Shown piece after piece: positions 1 to 4,113 of a stretch of DNA of 58,802 nt. This stretch comes from Candidatus Campbellbacteria bacterium. Its GTDB lineage: Bacteria; Patescibacteriota; Minisyncoccia; Phycocordibacterales; EsbW-18. The translations under genes were made by a program, and so were the position numbers. The DNA is taken from the NCBI GenBank assembly GCA_045863475.1, contig BTUR01000005.1:1-58802 (forward strand). The letters run 5' to 3'. The notes beneath the pieces are model-generated. The model had not been told where the DNA came from. It worked only from the letters and a program-made list of their open reading frames with translations, and searched no databases. The first letter of the stretch is position 1. Each line of letters starts with the position of its first letter.

Positions 1-1277
<1,277 letters not shown>

Positions 1278-1319
1278 GGGAATCTGAAAATCGTCACACA
1301 CCTGATTTCTTTATTGCCT

Positions 1320-1366
1320 GTCCCGTTAGAAGTAGGACGCGTGCGTCCGCACCTCTCTAATGGGAC
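1320..1366. repeat. CCCGTTAGA...TCTAAYGGG inverted-repeat element, copy 1
   Basis: Arms GTCCCGTTAGA / TCTAATGGGAC; the same arms recur at 34779-34881. Confidence 0.6.
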
Positions 1367-1396
1367 GCATGAATACTAAAGAGTGAAAAATTTCAC

Positions 1397-1499
1397 GGGG
1401 CCGGGTCTCTCCCCGAAAGGAGAGGGGCACGATGATGCGTGTGCGGCAAGCCGCGCCTCTAGGACGGGTCAAGGGTTCCAAACCCTCCCGGTCCCACCA
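1397..1499 (+). ncRNA. Aberrant tRNA-like element ending in ACCA
   Basis: GGGGCCGGG/CCCGGTCCC acceptor-like stem plus ACCA, and a T-arm-like AGGG-TTCCAAA-CCCT. There is no canonical D arm or anticodon arm. Confidence 0.6.
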
Positions 1500-1509
1500 T
1501 GTAATTCAC

Positions 1510-1658
1510 GGGCCTGTAGCTCAGAGAAGATTGTCCTAATTCGGTTGGTACCGTGGCCTTAAAGTGAGGCCAGGGGTTCGACGCCCCTTCGGACGATCGA
1601 GTAAAGAGCGCCCGGGTTACAACCGGGAGGTCGTGGTTAAAGCCCACCAGGCCCACCA
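1510..1658 (+). tRNA. tRNA-Val(TAC)-like gene with an ~70-nt cloverleaf-like insertion in the D-loop; function uncertain
   Basis: GGGCCTG/CAGGCCC+ACCA acceptor, TAGCTCAG...AGAGC D-stem, anticodon arm CCCGG-GTTACAA-CCGGG, and a deviant T-arm GTGG-TTAAAGC-CCAC. Confidence 0.65.
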
Positions 1659-1688
1659 AACCAAACGATTTCACAACAGTTCTTTCCT

Positions 1689-1714
1689 GCGGATGACGAA
1701 AGGCATCCGCACCA
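1689..1714 (+). ncRNA. tRNA acceptor microhelix (Leu-like stem) ending in ACCA
   Basis: GCGGATG-ACGAAAGG-CATCCGC-ACCA: a perfect 7-bp stem, a discriminator base and CCA. Confidence 0.5.
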
Positions 1715-1744
1715 CTCTTTAGTATTTATGTATGCAGTTGAACG

Positions 1745-2179
1745 TCGAATGCTGTGTTCTGGTTGGTCGAAGGGGTATTCACGAATATTTTTCTGCTGAA
1801 AAATTTCGCGAACCCGCCTCGGCCCGTCGGCCTGCGGCCTTACGAAGCTTTGCTTCTCACCCGTTCCATTCCGAGACAGGAAGCCTGTCCCGCAGTGAAA
1901 TTTGAAAACTAAATAGAAGAGATGAGCATTTTGTTCTGGTGGCTTAACGATGGGGTTACACCCGTTCTCATTCCGAACACGGAAGTTAAGACCATTAGTG
2001 CCGATGGTAGTCCGAAAGGGCGAGAGTAGGTAGCCGCCAGAACAAAGTACTCATCCATATCAAATTTCCACCGCGGGATTAAGACCGCGAGTAGCCTAGG
2101 TAGTTCTGCCCGAGCGAGAGTAGGGCACGTCCAGCACTTAGATTAAGTGCTGGATAAACCGCCAGAACAAAGCATTCGA
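1745..2179 (+). ncRNA. Outer, insertion-interrupted 5S rRNA-like RNA enclosing the intact 5S gene
   Basis: Colinear 5S segments GTTCTGGTTGG..GGGGT / CACCCGTTCCATTCCGAGACAGGAAG / TTAAGACC..GGTAGT..GCGAGAGTAGG / CCGCCAGAACAAAG. The two ends are complementary. Confidence 0.7.
1933..2043 (+). rRNA. rrf: 5S rRNA (intact, inner copy)
   Basis: CACCCGTTCTCATTCCGAACACGGAAGTTAAG, GCCGATGGTAGT and GAGAGTAGG motifs; terminal helix GTTCTGGTGG/CCGCCAGAAC. Confidence 0.95.
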
Positions 2180-2183
2180 ACAT

Positions 2184-2210
2184 AAAAAACAGCCCGATGG
2201 GCTGTTTTTT
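2184..2210 (+). terminator. Intrinsic terminator of the rRNA operon
   Basis: AAAAAACAGCCC-GAT-GGGCTGTTTTTT. Confidence 0.85.
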
Positions 2211-2241
2211 AATTCACGAAACCTTGGTATCCTTTGCATAT

Positions 2242-3003
2242 ATGACATGGGCATCACGCAGACAGGGCTTGTATCTCCTTGGGACGATTGTCGTCCTCGG
2301 CCTTCTGTTTGGGGTGCCGCTGTATTTTTATCTCTACGACGAGCCAACGTGTCGAGACGGCATACAAAACGGTTTGGAAGAAGGTGTGGACTGCGGCGGC
2401 GGGTGTGAAAAAGTATGTGCGTTCCAGGCCATTGAGCCTATCGTGCACTGGAAGCAAGAATTTGAAGTCGCTCCCGGTGTGTACACCGTTGTTGCGCTTG
2501 TTGAAAACGCAAACGATTCCTATGAATCCGTTGCGGTTCCGTACGTGTTCCGTCTCTATGACTCTAAAAACGTTTTCATCGCGGAGCGGAAAGGGCAGGT
2601 GTATCTTTCGCCGCACATGGTGATTCCGGTATTTGAGACCGGTATTCACACGGGAGAGCGCGTGCCGACTCGCGTGGAATTTTTGTTTGAGAAAGAAATT
2701 GTCTGGACGAACTCGGCGTTTTCTCTACCGGATGTCGATGTCATTTCCCGGAGGTTTGAAAACGAGGATGCGGCACCGCGATTACTTGTGACGCTGCGAA
2801 ACAACACGCTCTACACATTTTCGCGCATTCCCGTTGTTGTTGTGCTGTACGATGCTTCCGACAACGCATTGCACGCCTCACGCACTGTCATCCCCAGTTT
2901 GCCCGCAACCTCGGATAAAGAAATTGTGTTTACGTGGCCGCAGCCATTTGGGGCACCGGTGGCACGTGTTGACGTGGTGCAGTTGTATCCGTTTTCCCAA
3001 TAA
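2242..3003 (+). CDS. Membrane-anchored exported protein with a Cys-rich CxDGIQNGxExGVDCGGGC motif and FxLYD-like Ig domains
   Basis: N-terminal TM helix, the Cys motif and FRLYD/VLYD repeats. Start moved to ATG 2242 because the upstream part overlaps the terminator. Confidence 0.75.
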   Translation: MTWASRRQGLYLLGTIVVLGLLFGVPLYFYLYDEPTCRDGIQNGLEEGVDCGGGCEKVCAFQAIEPIVHWKQEFEVAPGVYTVVALVENANDSYESVAVPYVFRLYDSKNVFIAERKGQVYLSPHMVIPVFETGIHTGERVPTRVEFLFEKEIVWTNSAFSLPDVDVISRRFENEDAAPRLLVTLRNNTLYTFSRIPVVVVLYDASDNALHASRTVIPSLPATSDKEIVFTWPQPFGAPVARVDVVQLYPFSQ

Positions 3004-3009
3004 CGCTCT

Positions 3010-4113
3010 ATGCCTTTTCTCGCGCTGCGCTCCATTGACTGGGTGTTGCTCATCAGCGCACTCGCACTCTCGGGTGCCGGGTTGGTGACGATGAACTCGT
3101 TCATTGAACCAAATATCTTTTTTGAACAGCAAATCGTCTGGCTGCTCCTGTCGCTCGCTGTTTTCTTCGCCGCGTCGCTTGTTGACTGGCGGTTTTTGCG
3201 CAATACATGGGTCGTCGTGTCATTGCTTCTTATCTCCGTTCTCTCGCTCGTGCTCCTCTTTCTGTTCGGAACCGTGACGCTTGGTGCTGTTTCGCGCTTT
3301 GACCTGGGACTGTTCTTCATTCAACCGTCTGACCCGGCAAAACTCGTACTCATTATTATTCTCGCAAAATATTTCTCGCGTCGGCACGTTGAAATTGCGC
3401 ACGTGCGCCACATTCTCGTCTCCGGATTGTACGCGTTTTTGTTTTTTGTGCTGTTGTTCGTTCAGCCGGACTTCGGTGGCGCCATCGTGGTGTTCTTTTT
3501 GTGGCTTGGCATGGTGCTCGTCTCGGGCATCTCAAAAAAGCACCTCGCACTCGTGTTTGTTGTGGGTGCACTCGCGTTCGGGACACTGTGGGGTTTCGTG
3601 TTCCAGGATTACCAAAAAGACCGCATTCGCACCTTCCTCAACCCGCTTACCGACATTCAGGGGGCTGGCTACAACGCGTACCAATCCACCATCACCGTCG
3701 GCTCGGGGCAGCTGTTGGGTAAGGGAATAGGTTTCGGCACGCAATCACGCCTTCAGTTTTTGCCGGAATATGAAACAGACTTTATTTTCGGTGCATTTGC
3801 GGAGGAATGGGGGTTCATCGGGGTCCTCTTCTTACTTCTGTGTTTTGCCGTCGTCGTAGGACGTATTATGCACGGCGCTTTTTTGGGCGCGACGAATTTT
3901 GAAACACTGTTTGCGGTTGGCGTCGCGCTTTCAATTGTGGCACCTGCGGCAATCCACATCGGTATGAACATAGGTCTGCTTCCCGTAACCGGAACGGTGC
4001 TCCCGTTTGTTTCATACGGCGGTAGTCACCTAGTCGTTGAGTTTCTTTCTCTGGGCATGCTTGCCGGTATGCGCCGCTATCGCCGCGACGTCCACCGCGA
4101 ACTTGTTAGTTAG
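3010..4113 (+). CDS. rodA: SEDS peptidoglycan glycosyltransferase RodA/FtsW
   Basis: IQPSD.AK, QPDFG, GSGQLLGKG, LPEYETDFIF..FAEEWG and LPFVSYGGS motifs. Confidence 0.93.
   Translation: MPFLALRSIDWVLLISALALSGAGLVTMNSFIEPNIFFEQQIVWLLLSLAVFFAASLVDWRFLRNTWVVVSLLLISVLSLVLLFLFGTVTLGAVSRFDLGLFFIQPSDPAKLVLIIILAKYFSRRHVEIAHVRHILVSGLYAFLFFVLLFVQPDFGGAIVVFFLWLGMVLVSGISKKHLALVFVVGALAFGTLWGFVFQDYQKDRIRTFLNPLTDIQGAGYNAYQSTITVGSGQLLGKGIGFGTQSRLQFLPEYETDFIFGAFAEEWGFIGVLFLLLCFAVVVGRIMHGAFLGATNFETLFAVGVALSIVAPAAIHIGMNIGLLPVTGTVLPFVSYGGSHLVVEFLSLGMLAGMRRYRRDVHRELVS

Follow-up and report, generated by a model that had tools for sequence, protein, structure and literature searches.

Organization of the 5S region

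The window analyzed here is a stretch of 58,802 nucleotides from a Candidatus Campbellbacteria bacterium whose genome (G000) comprises 734 kb in 59 contigs and is 98% complete. The window begins within a 23S rRNA gene, which is followed by a spacer of 480 nt, a block of 5S-related sequence (1745-2180), a hairpin with a T run (2190-2210) and protein genes. In the block, a complete 5S rRNA gene (the inner copy) is surrounded by four pieces, O1 to O4, of a second 5S sequence (the outer copy). The pieces are separated by three inserts and the middle insert carries the inner gene. The order of features is as follows:

1-1277: part of the 23S rRNA gene; the window begins within the gene (Rfam, 875 bits)
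1745-1754, + strand: 5′ strand of the outer extended terminal stem (TCGAATGC) and linker (8/8 pairs with 2172-2179)
1755-1776, + strand: O1, outer 5S, 5′ strands of helix I and helix II (assigned from pair counts)
1777-1857, + strand: insert 1, member of a dispersed structured repeat (BLAST and alignment of copies)
1858-1883, + strand: O2, outer 5S, helix III and loop C (colinear with inner 1959-1985)
1884-1905, + strand: left end of the 5S-carrying element, with the 4-nt linker CCTG and the left inverted repeat TCCCGCAGTGAAATTTGA (17/18 pairs with 2060-2078)
1906-1932, + strand: internal loop and leader of the inner 5S, with GATGAG at 1921-1926 (6/6 pairs with CTCATC at 2050-2055)
1933-2046, + strand: inner functional 5S rRNA gene (Rfam RF00001, lineage HMM and helix pairs)
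2047-2078, + strand: trailer (CTCATC, 2050-2055) and right inverted repeat TCAAATTTCCACCGCGGGA (2060-2078)
2079-2129, + strand: O3, outer 5S, loop B, 3′ strand of helix II, helices V and IV (begins with TTAAG)
2130-2154, + strand: insert 3, a perfect 11-bp hairpin (2130-2140/2144-2154, 11/11 pairs)
2155-2179, + strand: O4, 3′ strand of outer helix I (2159-2168) and 3′ strand of the outer extended stem (2172-2179)
2190-2210, + strand: terminator-like hairpin CAGCCC-GAT-GGGCTG followed by T6 (intrinsic type, read from the sequence)

The 23S gene of the window has a 303-nt insertion. No tRNA was found by ARAGORN in window positions 1-4000. The hairpin at 2190-2210 was not listed by a consensus terminator scan, an omission that is presumably due to the extension of its stem by the flanking A and T runs. 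The pieces named in the original prediction were all found in their places. Pair counts bear out its statement that every insert is a self-closed stem, as well as the two extended terminal stems that it had described, the outer one (TCGAATGC/GCATTCGA, 1745-1752/2172-2179) and the inner one (GATGAG/CTCATC), both fully paired. Folding of 1745-2180 gives a z-score of −10.2, with none of 100 shuffles folding equally well, and the minimum free energy structure contains the outer terminal helix, the stalk formed by the inverted repeats and the inner 5S.

The inner copy is the only 5S match of Rfam in the G000 genome. It aligns with RF00001 at 1935-2042 over model positions 1-120 (78.2 bits for a cut-off of 38), and 34 of its 35 helix pairs can form, including 11/11 in helix I. 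A profile of 114 positions built from the 5S genes of 27 relatives (the lineage HMM) gives it 117.3 bits and gives 113.5 bits to the inner copy of G002, a genome from another species of the same genus; the 27 training genes of the order score 95.9-118.5 bits. The stalk (1888-1905/2060-2078) has 17/18 pairs and one bulge. This duplex, the extended helix I of the inner 5S and the RNase III gene encoded by the genome (245.8 bits, cut-off 166) together provide the anatomy of a processing stalk, and the repeats probably form one of RNase III type. A search of sequencing runs listed none of RNA type that contains the locus, and coverage from run X22, which we guess to be RNA, was restricted to conserved 5S parts of other organisms.

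The outer 5S copy and the inserts

For scoring, the outer pieces were joined in a script with the three inserts taken out. With the lineage HMM, used as a substitute for RF00001, the outer copy of G000 reached 39.9 bits (E value 2.7e-12, HMM positions 3-113) and that of G002 35.9 bits, whereas the maximum of 200 shuffles of the joined sequence was 2.0 bits. The outer pieces are therefore derived from a 5S gene along their whole length, and the proposal that the flanks of the inner gene spell a second, colinear 5S was correct. A search of Rfam with the two outer halves (1740-1900 and 2050-2185) returned no 5S match at E≤10; the matches that it gave were limited to miRNA and sRNA families at chance level and were discarded.

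Helix pairs of the outer copy were counted from explicit coordinates because hmmalign misplaced its helix I. This helix is complete in G000 (10/10 pairs with 2159-2168 and one bulged T) and continues into the 8-bp extension. Helix IV has 3/3 pairs in both copies and helix V has 5/6 in the outer copy versus 6/6 in the inner one. The damage is found in helix II (3/7 pairs versus 6/7) and helix III (5/8 versus 8/8), where two mismatches (ACGG to CAGG) are common to G000 and G002. The loop C motif CCGAAC has become CCGAGA in the outer copy of G000 and CCGAAA in that of G002. In the latter species O1 is ~8 nt shorter than the corresponding stretch of a real 5S, helix I has 8/10 pairs (counted by eye) and the outer extended terminal stem is absent. 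Comparison of the damage in the two genomes thus shows that decay hit different parts of the fold in each species.

The outer copy is probably not a working 5S. The original prediction had regarded it as an expanded 5S-like RNA whose fold could be preserved around the inserts, a proposal not supported in view of a score of 39.9 bits against at least 95.9 bits for all real 5S tested, by the combined 8/15 pairs of helices II and III and by the loss of CCGAAC. Expanded 5S rRNAs with inserts up to 109 nt are described in other prokaryotes (Stepanov & Fox 2021, PMC7812874, in the portions considered here); the inserts of the window are likewise self-closed, but the core of the outer copy is degenerate and the outer copy does not belong to that class. 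It is in our opinion quite improbable that it operates in some ribosomes as a second functional 5S, either expanded or split after removal of the inserts and then held together by helices I and II. The precedent of the expanded 5S rRNAs, the closed stems, the colinearity, the intact helix I with its extension, the largely intact helices IV and V, and the 84-92% identity of outer pieces to those of G002 although neutral sites are saturated (see below) are what such an RNA would be expected to show. The low score, the damaged core and the missing Rfam match of the halves speak against it, as do the short O1, incomplete helix I and missing terminal extension of G002 and the outer copies of three other genomes (G272, G119 and G195) that lack whole parts.

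Insert 1 is a member of a dispersed family. Copies of its core (60-70 nt) were found by BLAST in many genomes of the order, and G000 itself holds two further ones. An alignment of 19 copies, including those of the window and of G002, yields a consensus fold of 23 pairs, 14 of which exhibit compensatory double changes; neither insert 1 nor its relatives matched an Rfam family. A tRNA gene flanks the repeat at 14 of the 20 loci fetched. At the eight loci printed out the element is located 20-70 nt downstream of the tRNA, and the 3′ strand of its closing stem repeats the sequence of the adjoining tRNA from the T-loop to the 3′ end. The copy in the 5S block is oriented opposite to those beside tRNAs. 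The idea of a nested tRNA, inserted in a tRNA-Val-like gene, was found unsupported, ARAGORN giving only odd calls at low threshold. For insert 3, short palindromes resembling it were found in the genome G001, and the outer copies of G056 and G086 have hairpins with CCCCG...CGGGG ends at the corresponding position.

The middle insert is bounded by terminal inverted repeats (the 17/18-pair arms of the stalk) whose sequence is also dispersed. The family has arms of the form CCCCGTAGTGAAATTTG...CAAATTTCTACTACGGGG. A 22-nt pattern of the left arm (GCCCCGYAGTGAAATTTGAAAA) was searched with up to 3 mismatches in 401 genomes sampled from the order, giving 20 matches in 18 genomes; the reversed pattern, used as control, gave 6 matches. 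At seven of the 20 loci (G000, G002, G056, G086, G304, G119 and G272) a complete 5S is found within the arms and 5S fragments outside them. The arms of these nests are spaced by 145-156 nt, which leaves room for a 5S and a short leader/trailer stem. At other loci the arms are 1-101 nt apart and enclose no 5S; such copies occur in G305, G253, G138, G061 (three, inside 3 kb), G067 (two) and G407. Direct repeats of 3-4 bp stand beside seven of the dispersed copies (TTCA three times, ATAA, TAG, TCAA and TCA). The inverted repeats, the dispersed copies devoid of ORFs and the 3-4 bp duplications therefore correspond to the anatomy of a small non-autonomous transposon, and by this layout the dispersed repeat-bounded elements look MITE-like. 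An alternative is that they were derived from a 5S processing stalk and not the reverse. In G000 no second copy of the arms was found and no transposase with matching ends, its three DDE_Tnp_1 matches having unrelated ends. The 5S site of G000 carries no clean target duplication; the only candidate among the nests, in G086, is GTTTA/ATTAAG, one mismatch from a TTAA duplication. Two of the three inserts hence belong to families of dispersed elements, a circumstance that the original prediction had no means to see and that changes the explanation of the locus.

Recurrence and conservation of the nest in related genomes

A survey of relatives showed that the nesting is present in the congener G002 and in other families. 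A 5S flanked by the arms and by outer remnants was found in at least 11 genomes from seven families, a count that is a non-systematic tally. Within the genus of the window, G000 and G002 are the only ones among 15 species to have the nest. The G304 nest aligns without a break to window positions 1853-2102 (80% identity) and has an insert-1-like end at the equivalent place. The genome G056 features three concentric 5S copies on one strand, in which 5′ fragments are followed by a complete 5S (78 bits) and then by 3′ fragments; loop C of the middle copy is interrupted by another, related pair of arms, and the three copies have three different versions of the helix I/II sequence. BLAST coverage extends across the arms in 4/4 genomes of the genus g73. 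At ten more loci where the BLAST alignment continued beyond the borders of the 5S, nine were ordinary single 5S genes and one (G195) had arms and a reduced outer copy. None of the 12 single-5S relatives inspected has arms; their genes present only a short helix I extension and a terminator. Exact-pattern scans with the stalk arm and the start of O3 gave no match in metagenome contigs, and an exact-pattern scan of genome contigs retrieved a G002-type record as the sole match.

The junction of the outer copy with the 5S-carrying insert (GGAAG|...|TTAAG) is identical in five genomes of four families (G000, G002, G056, G086 and G304). The end of O2 (GGAAG) and the start of O3 (TTAAG) are adjacent motifs in the inner 5S; the old gene therefore neither lost nor duplicated a base at this point. 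As the original prediction had argued, a single simple tandem duplication would not yield the observed order of pieces. Two successive partial duplications, of a segment A and then of a segment B to give A-A-B-B, would produce it with no mobile element, the stalk being then a normal processing stem. Tandem arrangements do exist in the order: G030 has two tandem 5S copies (98.9 and 74.6 bits), while in G004 and G005 a complete 5S is followed by a 3′-partial copy ahead of the terminator. We nevertheless give little credence to this scheme because the arms occur elsewhere without a 5S and flanked by 3-4 bp duplications, are missing from the 12 inspected single-5S relatives, and meet the outer copy at the same junction in five genomes.

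It is extremely improbable that the nest is an assembly artefact or a chimera of the 5S regions from two strains. Short-read assemblies do break at the 5S and at insert 1 repeats, with loose ends at 1779 and 1958, but contigs from X3 and X5, runs of two other studies, cover the regions 1777-1963 and 1953-2124 (X3) and 1961-2068 and 2039-2132 (X5). They cross the O2/stalk, stalk/5S, 5S/stalk and stalk/O3 junctions. For the junction between O1 and insert 1, the only bridging contig comes from X1, possibly the source run. The independent genome G002 has the same pieces in the same order (86% identity) and homologous nests are found in several other families. The G002 nest and the X3 and X5 contigs thus establish that the nesting is no assembly artefact.

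The similarity between G000 and G002 drops sharply at both ends of the block. Spacer sequences on both sides are 35-44% identical, and the third codon positions of two downstream genes 43% and 50%. Within the block O1 is 36% identical, insert 1 81%, O2 92%, the left side of the stalk with the leader 76%, the inner 5S 93%, the right side of the stalk 84%, O3 84%, insert 3 79% and O4 84%. The loop part of 1906-1932 diverges fastest. When positions are sorted according to the predicted G000 fold, the paired ones are 84-89% and the unpaired ones 75-80% identical. Compensatory changes between the two species affect three pairs of the insert 1 hairpin and one pair of the stalk (U-A to C-G). An identity of 76-92% for the outer pieces and inserts, compared to 43-50% at the codon sites, implies that the relic is not evolving neutrally. 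This suggests that the block has a further function or that its two versions have a more recent common origin; its recent transfer between the two genomes was considered as a possible cause of the conservation.

Part of the similarity is, judging from the pattern of shared bases, the product of concerted evolution by gene conversion, with the inner copy as donor. Within G000 the two copies agree in having GTTC/GAAC in helix I, and within G002 they agree in having GTGC/GCAC; the loop D of each partial copy in G004 and G005 is that of its own species; and in an X3 contig (depth 2) the 3′ end of the outer copy is rewritten to the inner sequence and insert 3 is missing. Derived bases that separate the outer from the inner copy are also retained, which calls for selection acting on the precursor or, alternatively, for the block to be of younger common origin.

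These data bear on the possibility that the outer pieces and inserts were co-opted, as a platform acting in cis on folding and processing or as a decoy for proteins (for example uL18 or uL5), in the maturation of the inner 5S. In its favor are the 76-92% identity from insert 1 to O4 and its sharp fall to 35-44% at the block ends, the compensatory changes in insert 1 and stalk, and the persistence of 3′-partial copies between 5S and terminator in G004 and G005, the latter having derived bases in common with O3. We find such a role unlikely, although less so than a second ribosomal 5S: an X3 contig of depth 2 lacks insert 3, the completeness of the outer copy varies greatly between genomes, all 12 inspected single-5S relatives manage with neither outer pieces nor inserts, and gene conversion accounts for some of the resemblance.

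Proposed origin and expression of the nested 5S gene

The explanation that we consider the most probable, with reasonable though by no means full confidence, is that small mobile elements have split a relic 5S, the outer copy, and that the functional 5S is carried by one of these elements. Three insertions would have divided an older 5S gene into four parts, the middle insertion (1884-2078) falling exactly between the GGAAG and TTAAG motifs of that gene. The inverted repeats of ~18 bp, whose family elsewhere bounds small MITE-like elements lacking ORFs, here enclose a complete 5S that has its own leader/trailer stem between the repeats. The element may have entered the site after capturing a 5S, by insertion in a second 5S copy. 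The arrangement may also have arisen by tandem duplication followed by local transposition, or by recombination with incoming DNA in which the 5S halves served as homology arms.

Expression of such a locus can be envisaged as follows. Transcription of the 23S-5S operon would continue through the whole block and stop at the terminator (2190-2210). A long duplex is predicted to form from the inverted repeats together with the extended helix I, and RNase III or a similar double-strand-specific RNase could cut this duplex to free the pre-5S. The outer pieces would then be leader and trailer by-products and would not provide a second ribosomal 5S. They may have stayed recognizable partly by gene conversion and partly, perhaps, by aiding the folding of the precursor.

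A bolder proposal, which we put forward tentatively and hold to be possible rather than probable, is that the 5S and its two inverted repeats form a self-rescuing mobile cassette that invades the resident single-copy 5S, leading to nested replacement of an essential rRNA gene. Insertion would be tolerated only because a working replacement 5S arrives with the cassette, which might move between lineages with its own repeats or the adjacent 5S halves acting as homology arms. Successive invasions could account for the triple nest of G056, with its three helix I/II sequences, and for the patchy spread across at least seven families of the order.

Intervening sequences of 23S rRNA are long stem-loops in the rRNA gene that are excised by RNase III; they are classically discarded, leaving a fragmented but functional rRNA. 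The present locus resembles them in having a stem-loop in an rRNA gene and a duplex that is a likely RNase III substrate. It differs in that excision would free the functional RNA, while the host rRNA is a relic. Gene-carrying non-autonomous transposons, such as Pack-type elements, are compared here together with MITEs. The dispersed relatives of the middle insert share with them short inverted repeats, absence of ORFs, 3-4 bp duplications and variable internal length. The 5S-carrying insert is set apart from them by its cargo, a complete essential single-copy RNA gene, and by its target, another copy of the same gene; furthermore, no autonomous partner was identified in the search of G000, in which the element has one copy. 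The locus is accordingly regarded as joining three things already known, namely an rRNA pseudogene, a mobile element of small size and a processing stalk, with the unusual twist that the essential gene itself is the cargo.

No nested prokaryotic 5S was reported in the literature that we searched. Expanded 5S genes and 5S remnants with insertions are described from Clostridia, Halanaerobiales, Pseudoalteromonas and Halobacteria (Stepanov & Fox 2021, PMC7812874). In the parts of that article considered here, remnants with insertions at the ends of rRNA operons are regarded as pseudogenes, and spread by recombination and mobile elements is suspected. The helix-forming insertions in 5S genes are common to those cases and to the locus of the window. 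In the former, a single 5S contains an insert or a remnant accompanies normal copies; in the window, a complete working 5S lies within the insert, and it is the copy around it that has degenerated. According to the same portions of the text, the survey discarded sequences with “internal sequence duplication”, so that nests would have been removed; it makes no mention of Saccharibacteria, and the terms “Patescibacteria” and “candidate phyla” have no occurrence in its text (PMC7812874). The 5S genes of CPR bacteria, to which the organism of the window belongs, are described as short, about 105-120 nt, with one region missing, and the passages of that source used here treat rRNA insertions in 16S and 23S only, with no description of 5S insertions or nests (PMC9297842).

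5S genes are usually taken to be simple and stable, and the inner match is all that annotation pipelines show. The window contains instead an essential single-copy 5S placed between transposon-like inverted repeats inside a dead 5S, an arrangement that reaches up to three layers and occurs in several families. Even on a sober reading, the locus documents two families of small structured repeats in CPR bacteria, both of them unannotated, that either target stable-RNA genes or build up in them. If the 5S-carrying cassette is mobile, it would be a route for horizontal replacement of an rRNA gene and a natural case of a structural RNA expressed from within a processing hairpin, with a bearing on rRNA-based phylogeny, on the tolerance of small genomes to insertions in essential RNA genes and on the origin of rRNA intervening sequences.

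The repeat family of insert 1

Insert 1, which interrupts the outer, degenerate 5S copy, belongs to a dispersed family whose members were fetched from the window's own genome (G000) and from related bacteria.

Window 1777-1857: insert 1, a dispersed structured element of ~70 nt, with copies at loci L032-L051
G000:C1:218064-218730 (L049) and G000:C4:43352-43987 (L050): further loci of the element in the same genome

The consensus fold of the element has 23 pairs, 14 of which show covariation, and comparison with Rfam gave no matching family. Of the 20 fetched loci, 14 are flanked by a tRNA gene, mostly one for Leu or Arg. In the eight loci inspected in detail the element is found 20-70 nt downstream of the tRNA gene, and the 3′ strand of its closing stem is a copy (~20 nt) of the neighbouring tRNA from the T loop to the 3′ end, whose exact complement is found upstream. 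The family may represent a novel RNA motif, or else an insertion element that targets tRNA genes. Fragments of 5S relics and insert-1-like sequence were also observed downstream of the 5S terminator at L011 (genome G003) and L013 (G034), where the 5S genes are single and otherwise ordinary.

Interrupted tRNA-like and 23S rRNA genes

Window 1510-1672, plus strand: gene resembling tRNA-Val(TAC) that encodes its CCA end, in the spacer between 23S and 5S
Window ~690-992, plus strand: insertion of 303 nt that falls in domain V of the 23S rRNA gene, close to model position 2619

The D loop of the tRNA-Val-like gene is split by an insert of ~75 nt, and ARAGORN calls the gene only once ~1525-1600 is cut out in silico. 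Because a normal tRNA-Val(tac) is present on contig C1 of G000, the interrupted gene is probably a second stable-RNA relic. Outside the window, ARAGORN run with introns allowed reports a tRNA-Ile(gat) whose intron spans 1161 nt (G000 C10:1778-3035) and, in this mode only, a tRNA-Asn(gtt) with a 227-nt intron (C2:16791-17090). The 23S insertion yielded no Rfam group I intron call at the gathering score.

Possible exchange between 5S copies, and 5S genes of other genomes

A contig of depth 2 from X3, a sequencing run of another study, has position 2124 fused to 2159 with TAG in between. Its outer 3′ end thus lacks insert 3 (the 11-bp hairpin) and is identical to the 3′ end of the inner 5S, a sequence arrangement that suggests ongoing gene conversion between the two copies.

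G056:C29 (L057/L065), minus strand: triple-nested 5S
G086:C9 (L062/L081), query positions 96-149: short repeat of ~50 nt within the 5′ part of an outer 5S

In the triple nest a complete 5S is enclosed twice over by 5′ and 3′ fragments of further copies; its two inverted-repeat pairs are different but related, and there are three different helix I/II sequences. The G086 repeat, which has several further copies in G086 and G308, adds a third family to the small repeats that occur in 5S relics.

Two 5S genes carry large insertions internally: that of G043:C28 (L056) gains ~100 nt after HMM position 81, the match resuming at position 84, and in that of G119:C19 (L070; 139 nt, 74.9 bits) helix IV is expanded by a long hairpin. 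Both are candidates for true expanded 5S rRNAs of the order.
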